In this document: one piece after another, positions 21,411 through 59,613 of the stretch
Numbering within the stretch: position 1 is the stretch's first letter
Layout: each line of letters opens with the position of its first letter
Assembly (NCBI GenBank): GCA_951406725.2
Contig: OX597825.1
Span: 16,988,001 to 17,052,000 of the forward strand
Reading direction: 5' to 3'
Source: Octopus vulgaris
Lineage: Eukaryota
DNA length: 64,000 nt
Notes under the pieces: model-generated
The model's input: the letters and a program-made list of their open reading frames with translations, nothing else
Databases searched by the model: none
What the model was told of the DNA's origin: nothing
Program-made: the position numbers and the translations under genes

Positions 21411-21979
21411 AGTATGTATGTATGTATGTATGTATGTATGTATATACACGCCTCTACATACGTACATACACTTACATACGCAGACATTTGCTGTAAACAA
21501 TATGAAATAATCTAAGCGTCTTCAAATTAGCATATGCGGAAAAGCTTTTCCATGAAGAAAAAAGCTGTTTTCCTTTCCGCCAAATCAACCACTCCAATAT
21601 TATGGATTAATATCATTGCTAAACACAGAATACGAAGTATAATGTCAATATATTTCGCTTTTACTCTATCAGTTGAATTATTGCTTATTTACTTGCTTTT
21701 TCGTTGTCTATCCAACTGTCTGTTTGCTTGTTTGTCGGATTGTCTTTCTGGCCGCTTCTCCGGGTTTCTGACTGTCACTTTCAATGCCTGTTTCTCTCTG
21801 TCTCTGTCTCTCTCTTTCACTATCTATCTAACCATCTATCTATGTATTTATCTTTGTGTCGACCTATCTCTGCGTCTCTTTGTGTCTCTTTGTCTGCCAT
21901 ATATTTATATCAAATTCCTTTAATACCTATGTATTTGTTCTTACAATTTTTTTTTATTGGAAGGACTTCATGCAAAAAA

Positions 21980-22423
21980 TAGTGGTACGATAGAGTAGTT
22001 GTATACTGTCTAAATAGTAGTGGTGTGATTCCCTCCATGGGACTGTCTCATTAAGTTGACAGTATACAACTACTCTATCGTACCACTACTGCTTATATCT
22101 CTTTGAGATATTTAGAAATGTAATATTTCTATTTTTGTAATCAGTGGATTTATTTCACGAGACTTCTTATATGTTAACAAGGCCTAGACAAGCATCTCCA
22201 GCTAGCAGGCCATGCTACTCCAGACTGATGACGAGCAAGACTCAGAAACTAGTCTCTGGATGCAGGCTTCGCTGGGTGGAGGTGCTTGTCTCCCCCTTGC
22301 AAACATAAAGACACAGGAAATGTGTCAAGGCCGACAGGAGGCATTGATGTTTCCTTGGGCTAAATAGCAGTGAGGGATTCCCTTCATGGGAATCTCACAT
22401 TAAATTGACAGTATACAACTACT
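21980..22423 (+). mobile_element. Retrozyme-like element (350-nt monomer, partial tandem, inverted 5' end)
   Basis: Direct repeat starting at 22011 and 22361 (period 350). Perfect 31-bp inverted repeat 21980-22010 / 22058-22088. Central HHR. Confidence 0.75.
22219..22260 (+). ncRNA. Type I hammerhead ribozyme with palindromic stem III
   Basis: TCCAGA-CTGATGA-C-GAG CAAGA CTC-A-GAAA-CTAG-TC-TCTGGA. GUC triplet at 22252-22254. Stem I is extended by 22186-22200 pairing with 22277-22291. Confidence 0.82.
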
Positions 22424-22516
22424 ATATCTATATACACCTGTTTGTTGTTTATACATCTGTCTCCCTTTTTTGCTTTTCTGTAAATTCCAACTATATATAT
22501 ATATATATATATATAT

Positions 22517-22965
22517 AGAAAGTGTGTCTATGGCCAGCTGGAGGCTACAAACTACAGTAGCATCCACCCTTAGGGGTTAGCCTGATTCATATGGCAAATA
22601 TACGTCACGATGTGTTGTAGCTACTGTTTATAACTTGCTCTGAGATTTATTATTGCTTCATTACACTTTTTCGATATCAGTGTCTTTACGATACTGGAAA
22701 AAGTTTTAAGTATTTGTGAAGGGAACCTGCTTCTCATCGACAACTGTGATTGTCACATGCCGATGACGGGTCAATACCCAGAAACTCGAGTCCGTGTGTA
22801 TCATAAGTTGGAGACGGGAAGGATGGCTTCCCTTTGCAAATACTGATAGGGCACAGAAAGTGTGTCTATGGCCAGCTGGAGGAGGTGTCCTCCTGGGGCT
22901 ACAAACTACAGTAGCATACACCCTTAGGGGTTAGCCATATTTATATGGCAAATATACGTCACGAT
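22517..22965 (+). mobile_element. Retrozyme-like element, ~340-nt monomer in 1.3 tandem copies
   Basis: AGAAAGTGTGTCTATGGCCAGCTGGAGG...GTCACGAT repeated at 22517 and 22855, with an internal HHR and (TA)n flanks. Confidence 0.78.
22754..22798 (+). ncRNA. Type I hammerhead ribozyme motif (CCGATGA variant)
   Basis: CACATG-CCGATGA-C-GGGT CAAT ACCC-A-GAAA-CTCGAG-TC-CGTGTG. Confidence 0.75.
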
Positions 22966-23262
22966 ATATATACATATATACATATTTTTCGACCTGGTTC
23001 AAAGCCCAATCTTCCGCGTTCCTTTACAGGGCTTAGGAAAACTGATGGAATAACTGCAATAAGTGAGTGAATCTAAAAATGTAATATGCTGAATAAAATC
23101 ATGATTAACTGATCCTATTATAATATATTTTACCCAAAGCCTGAGACTATTGAGCGCCATCTAGTATTTCTCCATTTTTCATAATTGAGAACCTTTGAAA
23201 AGTCTACCAGTTTTGATATTTATTCTTCTCTGAACACCGCACTCTGACATGAGAAATATATA

Positions 23263-23662
23263 TATTTATATTATATAGAGGGTACTATTATTCATAGGTA
23301 CCGCACGCTAGGAGGGACTATTGCAGTCAAAACTACTTAAATAAACTACTTGAATTCGTTGCACTGAAGAGCATAGAATGCATATTCTGCATTGATTGCG
23401 AAATCACAGGTGATATGTAACTAAATTCTGTTTTTAAATGACTCGCTTTGAAGTTTTGCATTCGGTACAATTTGTTTATTTTAGTAGTTTTGACTGCAAA
23501 GGTCCCTCCTAGCGTGCGGTAACTATGAATAATAGTACCCTGTATATAATATAAATAAGTATTTTCAAAGTTGAAAAAAATTTACAGATTTTTTCTCTTA
23601 CGAGGTTTTTCACGCTAACTACTTCATAATTTCTTATAAAGATTTTATCCTTATTTTTAAAT
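23263..23662 (+). mobile_element. Non-autonomous HHR-bearing PLE-like element with inverted 5' copy
   Basis: 84-bp inverted arms (23263-23346 / 23474-23557) enclose an HHR. A ~100-nt tail runs into (TA)n. Confidence 0.75.
23358..23421 (+). ncRNA. Type I hammerhead ribozyme, canonical core
   Basis: GTTGCA-CTGAAGA-GCA...TGC-GAAA-TCAC AG GTGA-TA-TGTAAC. Stems I, II and III all pair. Predicted cleavage after AUA (23415). Confidence 0.85.
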
Positions 23663-23683
23663 ATATATATATATATACATATA

Positions 23684-23741
<58 letters not shown>

Positions 23742-24709: not shown

Positions 24710-24756
<47 letters not shown>

Positions 24757-24783
24757 GAAGGTTTGGAGATGATGTACAGGTAT

Positions 24784-24999
24784 TATATATTAGAAAAATT
24801 GAGGTAATCAGATCAGATGGTTCATATTTGTAGATATTTATTTATATATTACATTTTTTACATATATATCATATCATTCGGATTAGCGCTTGCTCCCATT
24901 CTAGTGGGTTTTCAAATCAAATCAGTTGTGGGTAGTTTGAACCTTTTTATAGTTTCGTAGTAGTGGGTGAGGAGGAAGTGAGACAGAGAGAAAATATGT

Positions 25000-25067
<68 letters not shown>

Positions 25068-25076
25068 ATTTATATC
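24784..25076. repeat. Pseudo-LTR (3'-terminal copy)
   Basis: Reverse complement of 27507-27795. Confidence 0.92.
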
Positions 25077-25277
25077 TGAGAGTGAAGAAGTGTTATTTCC
25101 GTTGGTCTGCTGGACCCCCTGTGGTTTTATAAGAACTTTGGCTGTCCATTTCAATGTCACTGAGTGTGTGTTGTGCATAGGTTGGCCTGGCAAATGTCAT
25201 TTGGGGTCACACTTTCTATGATCATTCTGTGGAGGTGTGTGTGTGTGTGTGTCTCTCTGTGTGTCTGTGTGTGTTTT

Positions 25278-25315
<38 letters not shown>

Positions 25316-25834
25316 TGTGTGTGTGTCTGTGTGTTTGGAGAAGGGGAGAGAGACAAAAAGAGAAAAGGGAAAATAAAAATAATAATAATAAAAATAAAAA
25401 ATTAAAAATTAAAAAAATAAAATAAAATAAAAACAAAAAATAAAAAATAAAATAAAAAAATATAAAGAATAAATAAAAATATAAAGAATAAAAAATAAAA
25501 AAATAAAAATAAAAATAAAAATAAAAATAAGGGAGGAAGTGGAGAAGAAAAAATATTTTTGTGTGTTGATATTTATACCAACACATATATATACACACAC
25601 ACAGACTTATACATAAAATATTTGAAAAAAACCTTTTTATCGGTTCAAAATGAACAACCAAATTATACCATCTTGAAAGTTGTATGTCATAGGAAAGTTA
25701 AAATTAAAGTGACAATTAAAGGGTAAAGATGGAAGTGAATTATAAAGATAATAATATAATATGATGTATATAACAGGCAATACACACATCTACACACACA
25801 CAGATTTTTCCTTCAATGTATGTTGAGTAAAGTT

Positions 25835-27506
25835 TCAGCCATTTAATTTGGGGGAGAACTTAGCTATGAAATGTTTTTCCATATTCCTCCTGAAGGGGGT
25901 GTCATTCTTCGGACACTTGTAGAAGGGAAATATCTTAAATTTTCCTTCTCCACATGTAGCTAGGTGTGTGCTTAGTGGTATTTTGCGTAGTTCTTCCTGC
26001 CGAATATGTTGTCGGTGGATCCTGGCTCGCTGGCACAAAGAATTACCAGTTTCTCCTACGTAATTCTCCTTGCATGTGGGGCAGGTTATGCAGTATATGA
26101 CGTTCTGCGTCTTGCAGTTCATATCTGCATTTACTTTGAATATGACACCATTTTTAAATCTTATCTCTCTGTTGCTCTCTATGTATTTGTAGGTGGGGTT
26201 GCTGCAGGTCCCACATCTACCATCTCCGCACTCTTTTGCAAAGAATTCCGTTTTAGTTTCTGAAGAGAATTTCGCTCTTGTTAGGTGTTTTTTTAGGTTT
26301 TTGTCCTGTCGTCTACTGTTTTTTATGCTATATTTGTTTAATATGTTTTTCATTTTGGGGCTCTGTAAGGCTATTGGTAGGTTTGAATGTATGGTTTGGA
26401 AGATGTTGGTAACTCCAGGGTTGTGTGTGTTTATAAAAGGGATAGTGTTTTCTTTGTTTTTTGTTTTGGGTGTCCTGAGTTGTGTGATGTCTAGTTTTAA
26501 TGCTCTTGTGATTCCATTTTCTATTAGTTTAAGGGGGTATTTTTGCTCTAGGAGGAAGCTTTTGAGTTCATCTAGTCTTATTAATCGTATTTGTGAATCA
26601 GTTACTATGCTACATATTCGTCGTGCCATACTATATGGGATGTTTCTTTTTGTGTGGGATGGGTGGCAGGAGTGGAAATTTAAGTATTGATGTGTGTCAG
26701 TTTTTTTGTAGTGGATGTCTGTTGTGACGATGGAGTTGTGTATTTTGATGTTGATGTCTAGGAAGGGAAGTTCGTTGTGGCTGGTATCTATTGTGAAATT
26801 GATAGATGGGTGCAGCGTATTGAGGATGTTGTGGAATGTTTGTAGGTCCCCTTCTGATCTGTTCCAAAAGATGAAACAGTCATCGAGGTAGCGTTTCCAC
26901 TTTTTCTTGATGTCTTCTCTGAAGTCGTGTTCGAAGACTTTCCCTATTTCGTCATATAGTTTTTTCTCCAGGAAGCCCATCACTAGGTTGGCATATGAAG
27001 GTGCGAATTTTGTACCCATAGCCGTGCCTTTTATCTGTCGGTATGTCTTGTTGTTGAATGAGAATGTGTTTTCTTCTAGTATTAGTTGGGTGGCTTGGGT
27101 GATAAAGTTTGTCTTGAAGCGTTCATCTATAAGTTCTCTGTATTTTTCTATTGATTGTTTTATAGCTTCTAGACCTAGGGTGTGTGGTATGTTTGTGTAT
27201 AGATTTGTGACATCAAAGCTTGCAAGTATGGTGTTTTTCGGGACTGTATTTGGAATGTGTGTGAGGAAGTCTATGTCATCCCTTATGTAGCTTGGAATCT
27301 GTGGGCATAGAGGTTTGAGGAGTATATCTATGAAGTGGCTTAGTTGTTGTGTTGGTGCCTGGGGTCCTGCCACTATTGGTCTCATCGTGAGGTCTGCAGG
27401 TCTTTGTACTCTTATGTAGTGGTTCCTCTGTTCCTTTATGGCTCTCTGTATTTCCGAGCTTTTATGAATTTTAGGTAATCCATAAAAGTTGCTTTCTTTG
27501 GTTTGT
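25835..27506 (-). CDS. PLE reverse transcriptase + GIY-YIG endonuclease (5'-truncated, about 556 aa uninterrupted)
   Basis: RT motifs FYGLPKIHK, MRPIV, SFDVTNLYTNIP, QIKGTAMGTKFAPSYANL, RYLDD, LPFLD, YKKTDTHQYL and HPSHTK. Cys linker CGDGRCGTC. Endonuclease NVIYCITCPTCKENYVGETG...HRQH...HL. The first ~37 aa of the listed ORF come from the inverted pLTR. Confidence 0.95.
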
Positions 27507-27515
27507 GATATAAAT

Positions 27516-27579
<64 letters not shown>

Positions 27580-27781
27580 ACATATTTTCTCTCTGTCTCA
27601 CTTCCTCCTCACCCACTACTACGAAACTATAAAAAGGTTCAAACTACCCACAACTGATTTGATTTGAAAACCCACTAGAATGGGAGCAAGCGCTAATCCG
27701 AATGATATGATATATATGTAAAAAATGTAATATATAAATAAATATCTACAAATATGAACCAGCTGATCTGATTACCTCAAT

Positions 27782-27795
<14 letters not shown>
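27507..27795. repeat. Inverted pseudo-LTR at the 5' truncation point
   Basis: Reverse complement of 24784-25076, joined directly to RT coding sequence. Confidence 0.92.
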
Positions 27796-32090: not shown

Positions 32091-32853
32091 GGGGAGCTGG
32101 TAGAATAGTTAGCACGCCGGGCAAAATGCATAGCCGTATTTCGTATGCCATTACGTTCTGAGCTCAAATTCCTCCGAGGTCATATTTGCCTGTGATCCTT
32201 TCGGGGTCGATTAAATAAGTACCAGTTACGGACTGGGGTCGATATAATCGACTTAATCCGTTTGTCTGTCCTTGTTTGTCCCCTCTGTGTTTAGCCCCTT
32301 GTGGGTAGTAAAGAAATAGGTATTTCGTCTGCCGTTACGTTCTGAGTTCAAATTCCGTCGAGGTCGACTTTGCCTTTCATATTTTCAGGGTCGATTAAAT
32401 AAGAACCAGTTACGTACTGGAGTCGATATAATCAACTTAATCCGTTTGAATATCATTGTTTGTCCTCTCTGTGTTTAGCCCCTTGTGGGTAGTAAAGAAA
32501 TACGTATTTCGTCTGCCGCTACGTTCTGAGTTCAAATTCCGCCGAGGTCGACTTTGCATTTCATCCTTTTCGGTGTCGATTAAATAAGTACCAGTTACGT
32601 ACTAGGGTCGATATAATCGACTTAATCCGTTTGAATGTCCTTGTTTGTCCTCTCTGTGTTTAGCCCCTTGTGGGTAGTAAAGAAATAGGTATTTCGTCTG
32701 CTTTTACATTCTGATTTCAACTTTCGTGTTGGTCGAATTTGCTATTTATCCTTTTGGGGTCGATATATTAAGTACCATTTGCGTACTGGAGTCGATCTAA
32801 TCGACTGGCCCGCTCCCTCAAAATTTCGGGCTTTGTGCCTAGAGTAGAAAAGA
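32091..32853 (+). mobile_element. SINE family B, tandem array (4 units, period ~184 bp)
   Basis: Unit motif at 32153, 32337, 32521 and 32707. Confidence 0.85.
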
Positions 32854-33586: not shown

Positions 33587-34807
33587 GGTTCTGCAAATAG
33601 GCCCATACAATAGGTACCTGACTTAAGAAATAAATATTGGAGTCGAGAATATTAAAGACCCGCAGATTTCTGTAATCGACTCTTGTAAGTGCTATTCGGG
33701 GCTACCAGGTAACAAGCTAATATGGTACATCATCCCCCAAAGCTCCGTGCAAAGATGAGACCAAAAAGTCAATCGAAGTGACAAACCGGTTATAGTACAC
33801 ATCTGCCAGTCACATGACTATTGTCAATCTTCCACCATGTGTATTACGGTCAACATGTACATCTTGCCATTTACTCACAACTAACCACATCACTCCCATC
33901 ACAAGTACACCCGTTTTAAAAGGGTAAAGCTTAAGAAGAAAATAAACGATTGATTCCATTACCTCTGCATCAAATAATAATAATAATAGTCCGTAGGTTA
34001 ACGTATTTATAAGCATATAATATCGAGATATACTGAATGAAGTTCATAGAAAAGATGGCATATTAAACTGATAATGTTATTCTCGTAATTGTAACTTTCT
34101 ATTGGTTCTAAACATAATAATAGAGTTCATGCTAAAATGAGCTATAGCCAGTTATATTCGTATAAAAATCCTTTCGCTTTTGTAATGTCTGTCTAGATTT
34201 CGTTAATCAGCGGCTTTTACAGACATCTGACATCATATAAGTATGTTGTAGTCACTAGTTTGCTGTTTCAATACAGTTTATTGATTTAGCGGAGGAATTT
34301 TTCGTTCAGTTTTGAAACAGAAATTAACATAAAAAGGTAAGAGTAAAATAATAGCGAAACTGAAGATTGTAATTTTCTATTGAAACCTGATAATTATATT
34401 AATTGAAGATATCATTTGTGAAAGATGGTAAATACATAGTCAATGCATGTAAAGATTTTGCTTCCTCGACTTTCTGCTCTAAACTTTTGCCTTCATACCA
34501 GCTGCAACTTGTAACAGTTTCTTTGTCATTTTATTAGAGCTATCGCTGTGTAAATTATATAAACATACCAGCAATTTAAGACTAAATCGAGATCAGAGTT
34601 CCAAACTTAGCAGTCTTAGAATAAATTTTCTTTAGAAATCTACAAATATAAAGTCACCATATAATCATAACAAGAAAACGACGCTCTAAATCTAAACTTA
34701 TATTTGATAATTCGGCCAGTGACATTAATAGCTCAGTCGCGAACTATTTTCATGAGAGAACAAAGGTACTACCATGTCGTTGATATATCTGCAACTAAAT
34801 CTAGTAG

Positions 34808-35113
34808 TCTGTTGTGTCTGGGGAGAGTCATTTTCTTTTTGTGCCTTATAATGGAACACACTCAACGGTAAACTTTCCACTTATCTCTTATTTTTATTTT
34901 CCTAAAATTTTCGTTGCCTCTTGCAACCTTTTCAATAGTCTTCACTATTTTCAAGAGTCAAGACTCAACCTTCTCAAGAGTCAAGACTTTTGAAATGGTT
35001 GCAAGACGCAACGAAAATTTTAGGAAAAAATAAGAAAAGAGTGGAAATTGTACCGGTGAGTGTGTTGCTTTATAAGGCACAAAAAGAAAATGACTCTCCC
35101 CAGACACAACAGA
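34808..35113. mobile_element. MITE-like palindromic element
   Basis: TCTGTTGTGTCTGGGGAGAGTCATTTTCTTTTTGTGCCTTATAA... is mirrored at the right end, giving about 135-bp imperfect arms. Confidence 0.8.
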
Positions 35114-36166
35114 ATATGCTTCAACACACGAACTCCCATAAAGAATCTTGCAAACCAAATCCCAAAACGAAATAAATCTAGTAGACTTCACTCAAATCAT
35201 CTACTGTGTTATTAAGAAAAAGCACACATTAGATAATGTGGTCTGTGGGTGATGGTGTGCACAAGCGACTAGATGTTTAAAGCAGGAGCGTTTTTATAAA
35301 ACACCTCATTCAAGGCTGATCTAGAGATAAACAGACGGAAACAAGTAATGTGAGCTGGGCTTAATACTATATGACGTCTAACAGGAGAGGAAAATATGGC
35401 TTTGTATGTCCTTGTTTCTTTGTTTTGTAATCAGAATGTCGATCTCTATATTATGGGTTTTATTTTCTCACTTAAACACTTCAGAAGGAGAACCATCATC
35501 TTCGCTGCTAACACCAACCTGATAGTCCCTTTCCTGAACGCGAAATTTGAATATACATAACACACGAGTTCCAAACACAGAAAAAATATGCCCCATTGAC
35601 GAACTACCTCAATATATAAGCATACGAACGTCGCATACACACAGAATGTAATATAAGATACTGGAAAACAATTTACTATCCAACATGACTGTTTGCTCAA
35701 ATCCAGGGGCGATATCAACCGAAAATATGACATCCAAAAGTAGTGCTCCTTGATTTATTGTTTTCTTTCCGAGAATCTCCTGTTCCGCTGGATGGTGAAT
35801 GTGTACATTTGGTAACTAAGTGCCTTTACGTATATTTACTTTTTTATTAACATAGCCCCACGATAACAAATATATGAGACTCAACAAACAGATTTAATGC
35901 AGCCTATCCAAATTATTTGTTGACCATATCAATTAACGATACAGAAAATATTTCATGATGCAAATATATTATAGCATTCTACGGTTAAGGAGGAAATTAA
36001 TGGATGCCAAACAAAACATAATACAACTATAAGGAAATAGGAATAATTATTATGGAAAAAAGTCAAATCTAGGTCAAAGATATTTTTCCCATTTACACAA
36101 ACATGTATACTTCTTTCACTCTCTCTCCCTCTCTCTCACACTATCTGTGCGCGTGTTTATATGCAT

Positions 36167-47150: not shown

Positions 47151-48135
47151 GGCGGCGAGCTGGCAGAAACGTAAGCACGCTGGGCGAAATGCGTAGCCGT
47201 ATTTTGTCTGCCGTTACGTTCTGAGTTCAAATTCCGCCGAGGTCGACTTTGCTTTCATCCTTTCGGGGTCGATAAATTAAGTACCAGTTAAGCACTGGGG
47301 TCGCTCTAATCGACTTAATCCGTTTGTCTGTCCTTGTTTGTCCTATCTGTGTTCTAGCCCCTTGTGGGCAGTAAAAAAATAGGTATTTCATCTGCCGCTA
47401 CGTTCTGAGTTCAAATTCCGCCGAGATAGACTTTGCCTTTCTTACTTTTGGGGTCGATAAATTAAGTACTAATTACGCACTGGGGTCAATATAATCGACT
47501 TAATCAGTTTGTCTAGCCTTGTTTGTACCATCTATGTTTAGCCCCATGAGGGTAATAAAGAAATAAGAAACGTTAGCACGGCGGGGCGTTATGTTCTGAG
47601 TTCAAATTCCGCCGTGCTCGACTTTGCCTTTCATCATTTCGAGGTCGATAAATGAAGTACCAGTTACGCACTGTGGTCGATGTAATAGACCTAATCCATT
47701 TGTCTGTCCTTGTTTGCCCCCTCTATGCTTAGCCCGTTGTAGGCAATAAAGAAGTAAGAAACGTTAGCACGCCGAGCGAAATGCTTAGCGGTATTTCGTC
47801 TGCGTTATGTTGTGAGTTCAAATTCCGCCGAGGTCGACTTTGCCTTTCATCCTTTCGGGGTCGATAAATTAAGTACCAGTTACGTACTGGGGTCGATGTA
47901 ATCGACTTAATACCTATGTCTGTCCTTGTTTATCCCCTCCTTGTTTAGCCCCTTGTGGGTAATAAAGAAATAGGTATTTCCTGTCTTTACGTTATGAGTT
48001 CAAATTCCGCCGAGGTCGACTGGGCCTTTCATCTTTTCGAGGTCGATAAATGAAGTACCAGTTGCGTAATGGGATCGACCTAATCGACTGGCCCCCTCCC
48101 CCAAATGTCAGACCTTGTGCTAAGTGTAGAAAAGA
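47151..48135 (+). mobile_element. SINE family B, tandem array (5 units of about 180-215 bp)
   Basis: Head GGCGGCGAGCTGGCAGAAACG, then GTTCTGAGTTCAAATTCCGCCGAGGTCGACTTTGCC repeated five times. Confidence 0.85.
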
Positions 48136-48793: not shown

Positions 48794-49084
48794 ACCTGCG
48801 TCCATTATAAACCTTCGAATAGGGGAGGTCAGCCGCTTCATCCTGCCAGTCAGACAGCTGCAGACATGTTTCAGGGCATTTGCCCTTTATCAATGCAGCG
48901 TAGTCAGACCCAGCGTATATATATATGTATGTATATATATATATTTCGACGAGACTCTTTCAGCTTCCGTCTATCAAATCCAGTGACAAGGCTTTGGTCA
49001 GCCCACGACACTTGTCCAAGCTTCCACGCCGAGGGACCGAACCCGGAACTATGTGGATGGGAATTACATGGCCACACGTGCGCC
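48480..49084 (-). mobile_element. SINE family A, diverged, with ~120-bp insert in its microsatellite
   Basis: Both halves align to 1927-2346, with extra sequence at 48793-48915. Confidence 0.7.

Positions 49085-58909: not shown

Positions 58910-59613
<704 letters not shown>

Follow-up and report, generated by a model that had tools for sequence, protein, structure and literature searches.

A two-armed insertion of a hammerhead retrozyme family in (TA)n of the Octopus vulgaris genome, with the geometry of Penelope-like elements

The hammerhead-bearing hairpin at positions 23263..23662 of the window, the 64-kb stretch of Octopus vulgaris DNA analyzed here, is very probably a 5'-truncated, two-armed insertion of a hammerhead retrozyme with a unit of ~492 bp in (TA)n, likely made in trans by the reverse transcriptase (RT)-endonuclease of a Penelope-like element (PLE). 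The copy consists of an inverted arm on the minus strand (23263..23346, unit positions ~u308-391), which reaches the fixed end A of the family (..CCCTCTATATAAT then TA) at an outer boundary blurred into the TA run at 23255-23262, and of a main arm on the plus strand (23349..23662), a 5'-truncated unit spanning u183-492 that terminates at the fixed end B (..ATCCTTATTTTTAAAT). The arms meet head to head at 23347..23352 (BLAST overlap -4), at a junction with about 2 unassigned nt or a short TTG microhomology. The initial annotation had described an 84-bp fold-back enclosing a hammerhead, followed by a tail of ~100 nt into (TA)n, and both features are present: the inverted arm pairs with 23474..23557 of the main arm (plus strand) at 79/84 identical positions and 80/84 RNA pairs, with a fold z of -24, and an unpaired tail of ~100 nt of the PLE type lies between ends A and B at 23558..23662 (plus strand), followed by the (TA)n target microsatellite (23661..23739). 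It should be noted that both ends of the copy merge with (TA)n, leaving no distinct target site duplication to be read.

This layout would follow from where two cDNAs began and stopped. The 84-bp inverted repeat with its 100-nt tail would arise because both cDNAs cover u308-391, and the length of the tail equals the distance from A to B; the hammerhead sits in the loop because the arms of this copy stopped at u308 and u183. Other copies of the family have the hammerhead within one arm, have it twice, once per arm, or lack it. As an insertion scar of the Penelope type, the long hairpin is not special to the window copy, whose main arm, at ~2.6% from the family majority, has the median divergence of the family.

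The hammerhead itself (23358..23421, plus strand) is the sole full match when both strands of the window are searched with a strict type I pattern, and none of its 64 positions departs from the family majority. Every part of the canonical core listed in the initial annotation was located: stem I (GUUGCA 23358-63 with UGUAAC 23416-21), the CUGAAGA segment (23364-70), a stem II closed by GCA/UGC (23371-99), GAAA (23400-03), a self-complementary stem III of 4 bp with a CAGG loop (A23403-U23414), and an AUA triplet (23413-15), with cleavage predicted after A23415. Core residues of hammerheads are conventionally numbered from C3 to H17, and the motif has C3 U4 G5 A6 N7 G8 A9, G12 A13 A14, A15.1-U16.1, and H17 in an arrangement of three helices open at stem I. 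Stem I is predicted to extend past a 1x2 internal loop (23352..23428, plus strand; 23352-56 with 23424-28), with weaker conservation across families, and stem II contains an inner helix of 6 bp, AAUGCA/UGCAUU (23377..23393, plus strand), which shows compensatory changes in sister families. The Rfam models gave no hammerhead match at the locus even at E<=10, for which the long stem II insertion may be the reason, and the hammerhead region alone folds no better than its shuffles (z = -0.6). Rfam miRNA matches were rejected as microsatellite or hairpin noise.

Judged by comparison of copies across the genome, the hammerhead is real and not a product of chance. The pattern of core plus stem III has 762 exact matches in the whole genome and none in a reversed control, and these matches divide among several related families. 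In 14 representative hammerheads from sister families, 90% of cells are paired, compared with 26-41% for slid controls, and 11/25 pairs show double changes, on both sides of the helix; all of these lie in stems I and II, the invariance of stem III being partly built in by the search pattern and the relatedness of the 14 sequences inflating the shuffle control of the covariation test. Stem II is bipartite, and its inner helix covaries among sister families. Variation at core positions is 1.0% vs. 3.1%, the lower core value again being partly a product of the search pattern. The loci L084-L109 represent at least five sister retrozyme families that share stem III and the 3' region and differ in stem II length (12-30 nt); complementary motifs, TAGCGTG...CACGCTA, flank end A on either side, and their copies terminate at positions matching A and B.

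Within the microsatellite-rich genome of 2.8 Gb, the unit (reference locus L021) is non-coding and dispersed, with an antisense stop-free frame of ~150 aa. A family search returned 3075 candidates, 40 of which were scored, with best non-self matches of 85-97%; exact genome counts of three 20-mers along the unit (256, 237, and 165) imply several hundred arms. The unit occurs as 5'-truncated monomers and in head-to-tail arrays of up to ~2.7 units (L021), and tandem non-coding units each with a type I hammerhead are found at L021, L018, and other loci. With its one hammerhead, the window copy lacks this one retrozyme feature, which loci such as L021 possess. The window also holds tandem arrays of 184- and 191-bp units (32136-32806 and 47210-47771), which we take to be a SINE-like repeat.

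Nearly all insertions of the family end in (TA)n at A (u~391) or at B (u~493), ~100 nt apart, in end classes that are loose owing to TA microhomology (A = u380-403, B >= u482). Among 80 distinct loci chosen by similarity, 40/43 two-armed insertions carry A on one arm and B on the other and none carries A on both; 35 further loci are one-armed and end at A or B, and two are one-armed with odd ends. A second set, which overlaps the first, was taken from the insertions among the first 100 of the 256 matches of one 20-mer (83 loci, 4 of them dropped as later duplicates, leaving 79 insertions): 35/40 two-armed insertions are A/B, none is A/A, one is a complex B/B, and four have one odd end, and the 39/79 one-armed insertions end at A (23), at B (14), or at odd positions (2). 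One two-armed structure, with B u434-492 and A u45-396, recurs without change at four loci (L162, L173, L174, and L175), of which three have a GIY-YIG fragment nearby; we read these as a single insertion that multiplied afterwards within a larger repeat.

Long inverted repeats in a TA context are also a property of MITEs and fold-back DNA transposons, which are short and non-coding, and TA is the target of Tc1/mariner-type elements. The window copy shares all of this, with near-perfect inverted arms flanked by TA, and might be taken for such an element with 84-bp terminal inverted repeats and a captured hammerhead. Alignment of the family copies makes this reading vanishingly improbable, and the variability of the arms already refutes it. 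The shorter arm ranges from 23 to 440 nt and varies at its inner end, as expected of the PLE-type inversion that the initial annotation had preferred to MITE termini, and the fixed outer ends A and B occur one per arm. The arms are thus of variable length, not terminal, the element extending ~100 nt past the right arm, and they are often absent, as in the one-armed insertions of the second set; terminal inverted repeats of fixed length at both ends were not found, and head-to-tail arrays of units with 5' truncation are likewise unlike MITEs. Two other long fold-backs in the window, at 34805-35116 and 58910-59586 (arms of ~150 bp and 178 bp), are without a hammerhead match and are MITE-like or PLE inversions.

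The two arms of one insertion resemble each other more than arms from different insertions do. Divergence per site is 0.035 between the arms of one insertion and 0.053 between insertions, and rare variants are shared at 0.0024 within an insertion vs. 0.00015 between insertions, that is, 16 times more often. At u278, 21/22 inverted segment pairs agree where ~48% disagreement would be expected, and concordance is similar at u334 (30/31) and at u335 (33/34, the arms of the window copy being those that differ); these are segment pairs, some of them non-independent. We infer that the arms were primed on a single RNA source by the two ends of the cut DNA, and gene conversion could account for part of their similarity. 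For the window copy, the two-end mechanism is carried over from this evidence on the family: no minor variant is common to its own two arms, which differ at 6/86 sites, and its A arm lies within the span of its B arm, so that, taken alone, this copy could also have arisen by fold-back.

That containment, like the sharing of variants between arms, also fits an inverted arm made by self-priming or snap-back of the first cDNA, or from an antisense template, instead of by a second priming on RNA, and self-priming has been proposed for PLE inversions (PMC3846280). Across the family, however, neither arm is contained in the other in 18/35 A/B insertions, each holding sequence that the other lacks, which disfavors simple snap-back copying; some pairs are fully disjoint, as in L162, and A and B each also end one-armed insertions. 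We therefore regard snap-back as an improbable source of the inverted arm and retain priming at two sites. The arms further bear on the state of the template. Of 117 arms, 63 reach the hammerhead cleavage site, and 9 stop within 6 nt of it by BLAST; on inspection one of these stops is a TA-run artefact, one is a misparsed fragment, and the rest are spread over u247-258, one of them at u250, so that the 5' ends of the 117 arms show no sharp stop at the site. About 54 of the 63 arms read through it, and since most arms pass the cleavage site, the template would have been mostly an uncleaved multimer or a ligated circle.

The geometry of these insertions is that of PLEs in the same genome. A search for the GIY-YIG endonuclease returned 6136 candidates, of which 148 of the 150 scored match, many of them in 781-aa frames with RT and GIY-YIG. 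The autonomous RT and GIY-YIG elements insert in (TA)n and have two ends 40 nt apart, and four inverted PLE copies (L146, L148, L157, and L159) carry one end per arm. A local control for the insertion geometry lies 1.1 kb from the retrozyme copy: a 5'-truncated PLE on the minus strand (24755-27790; RT and GIY-YIG, an open frame of ~560 aa with 45% identity to the 781-aa family) has an inverted 5' arm (27506-27790) and a tail of ~35 nt, in (TA)n. PLE insertions with an inverted 5'-truncated copy plus a tail of 30-40 bp are described in PMC8557442, and the inverted-plus-tail structure also in PMC3846280. End B of the unit moreover resembles the outer end of the 781-aa family (ATCCTTATTTTTAAAT vs. 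ATCCTATTATAAAT). In older PLE relatives a minimal motif, UUGAUAA...GAAA CAUG UA, lies ~60-80 nt before the end and appears to be a U3-A8 variant of the hammerhead. On the strength of insertion geometry and end motif, a PLE is the putative partner of the family. A young autonomous PLE family, seen at L144:744-5990, has an extra open frame of 479 aa upstream of the 781-aa RT-endonuclease frame, and its pseudo-LTR (pLTR) is rich in repeated ATTGG/TGACGT boxes.

The same likeness could mean that the unit is itself a solo pLTR fragment, left by an autonomous PLE with ORF-bearing copies outside our sample. Insertion geometry and target are those of PLEs, 5' truncation often leaves a pLTR alone, and Xenopus pLTRs are homologous to retrozymes (bioRxiv 10.64898/2026.07.22.740005); sampling of the genome is, in addition, partial. 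The copies themselves speak against it: those that extend to u1 are followed there by u492 of a further unit, by an inverted arm, or by flanking sequence, never by an ORF, and when 177 loci were searched by tblastn with three PLE proteins, only 6 matched. Among 69 PLE loci sampled out of thousands of candidates (50 with GIY-YIG and 19 from an older family), no autonomous PLE shows homology to the unit; the unit matches among them are nearby inserted retrozyme copies and short AT-rich resemblances only, and no PLE frame for RT or GIY-YIG is joined to the unit. The sole direct abutment of unit and PLE, at L101, involves a sister family, and was rejected as a chimera: a young copy (97-99% to its kin) in an old PLE (~85%) is a nested insertion. 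We consider a solo pLTR unlikely and the reading as a retrozyme mobilized in trans much the better one. A match between u383-409 and the 3' end of the window PLE (22/27) was treated as weak, being AT-rich and out of register.

Folded with ViennaRNA, which takes secondary structure only and leaves tertiary contacts outside the model, the isolated hammerhead adopts its fold 0.4 kcal/mol above the minimum (P~0.06), and in the whole copy the probability of that fold drops to ~1e-6, with or without the left arm. The drop appears once 23450-23470 are included, where a competing downstream helix forms, which is predicted to block the hammerhead in the full transcript. Self-cleavage of the window hammerhead as a monomer is plausible, and cleavage, if any, would be co-transcriptional. 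The earlier claim that this is the best candidate for a ribozyme active as a monomer is upheld as a ranking within the window: it is the most monomer-compatible motif there because the three other hammerhead-like motifs (22225, 22760, and 48893), two of them with variant cores, have minimal palindromic stem III loops, although stem III of the present motif is self-complementary as well. Minimal hammerheads with such a stem III are thought to act as dimers (PMC6765202), and 8/9 Xenopus retrozyme dimers did not cleave in vitro (bioRxiv 10.64898/2026.07.22.740005). The ranking does not extend to the copy as such, whose hammerhead has the ordinary sequence of the family; having one hammerhead only, it is unable to set a monomer free and is probably a dead end.

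The three other motifs lie in repeats of their own. The minimal hammerhead at 22225 (CUGAUGA...GAAA CUAG UC, 6-bp stem I) is inside an element with an internal direct repeat (21970-22430), whose layout looks related to its neighbor at 22517. That neighbor (22517-22965) comprises ~1.3 units of another repeat with a period of 338-354, between TA runs, and contains the variant hammerhead at 22760 (CCGAUGA...GAAA CUCGAG UC). The motif at 48893 (minus strand; UUGAUAA, 6-bp stem II, GAAA CAUG UC, 6-bp stem I) is minimal and variant, sits in a short piece between TA runs, and recurs in L129/L155.

The initial annotation had further proposed that the long stem would be a potential substrate of ADAR or Dicer, and the locus might accordingly be imagined as kept for a functional monomeric ribozyme inside a double-stranded RNA used by these enzymes. 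The core is canonical and intact, with a 4-bp stem III, and transcription of the locus, if it occurs, would yield the 84-bp stem. The sequence of the copy, however, shows little sign of such upkeep: its divergence is the family median, the five mismatches between the arms are without compensation, and among ORFs >=130 aa no host exon was recognized nearby, a length limit that short exons would escape. The ADAR proposal found no support, rare variants of the family having no excess of A>G over T>C (64/11965 vs. 73/16178, p=0.34); at the common A/G sites u334 and u335 the two arms mostly carry the same base, and these sites may mark subfamilies. Contigs from four runs, RNA by our guess, span portions of the unit and are uninformative on strand, ends, circles, and locus. 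A maintained function at this locus is in our estimation most unlikely, and the preferred reading remains that of an ordinary insertion scar.

A mechanism consistent with these observations can be sketched. In vitro, a PLE protein cuts and extends both strands, and two internal start sites on the RNA delimit the tail; the protein is predicted to be a dimer (PMC11167929). For the octopus family, a PLE protein, probably dimeric, would nick both strands of the TA tract, and the two 3' ends would prime cDNA on the same RNA source, one at site B and one at site A. In the window copy the two cDNAs would have stopped after 312 and 84 nt and then been joined head to head; since the B arm crosses the site of hammerhead cleavage, the template was probably a ligated circle or a multimer left uncleaved. 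In multimeric transcripts of tandem source loci, the hammerhead is predicted to separate the monomers by cleavage. A wider reading, which we offer tentatively and hold to be rather less probable than its negation, would have the inverted pLTR plus tail of PLEs arise generally from a dimeric RT that primes both nicked strands at two fixed RNA sites, with the retrozyme lineage having evolved, independently of pLTR homology, a pair of its own that lies ~100 nt apart on a ligated circle, and with the hammerhead turned off by an anti-ribozyme helix after co-transcriptional cleavage.

Among known systems, the family can be placed with the metazoan non-LTR retrozymes (Cervera and de la Pena 2020, PMC7229834; Li, Clavereau and Pollet 2026, bioRxiv 10.64898/2026.07.22.740005), and works like a non-autonomous PLE, not as an autonomous member. 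It shares with the retrozymes of coral, mussel, and axolotl (PMC7229834) a non-coding, low-GC unit with one type I hammerhead, an occurrence as dispersed monomers and short tandems alongside PLEs, and a self-paired predicted circle (z = -4.3, 40 shuffles). The octopus unit of 492 bp exceeds the typical 170-400 nt (PMC7229834) and lies within the range of 51-972 bp given in bioRxiv 10.64898/2026.07.22.740005; its stem II, unlike that of the retrozymes described in these sources, is long and bipartite, and two-armed insertions with two fixed ends are not described for retrozymes in the portions at hand. Also in contrast to retrozymes with a homologous pLTR, none was found for the octopus unit in the 69 sampled PLE loci. 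A search of the literature on cephalopod retrozymes, octopus hammerhead ribozymes, and retrozyme, Penelope, or twin priming, outside subscription papers, Repbase, and supplements, returned no such family. With the endonuclease-bearing (EN+) PLEs (Penelope/Poseidon, Neptune, Naiad), as represented in PMC8557442, PMC11167929, and PMC3846280, the family has in common 5' truncation and partial tandems, an inverted 5'-truncated copy with a tail at one end in (TA)n or AT-rich targets, two initiation sites, and a hammerhead upstream of the 3' ends; the combination of inverted 5'-truncated copy and one-sided tail in a microsatellite is present in the two-armed octopus insertions. It differs in having no ORF and a tail of ~100 nt instead of 30-40, and its full-size hammerhead with a canonical core contrasts with the minimal hammerheads of PLEs, in which stem III is palindromic (PMC6765202).

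Mobilization of retrozymes by PLEs has so far been argued from co-occurrence and pLTR phylogeny. The scars of the octopus retrozymes, with two fixed ends used one per arm, variants shared between arms, and read-through of the cleavage site, match those of PLEs in the same genome; being short, the unit could serve as the substrate in tests of two-site priming with the in vitro PLE system that already exists. The window copy is ordinary, and it is the family that is useful as a record of mechanism: it is a new addition to the animal retrozymes, whose insertion footprint is informative and whose tail is unusually long.
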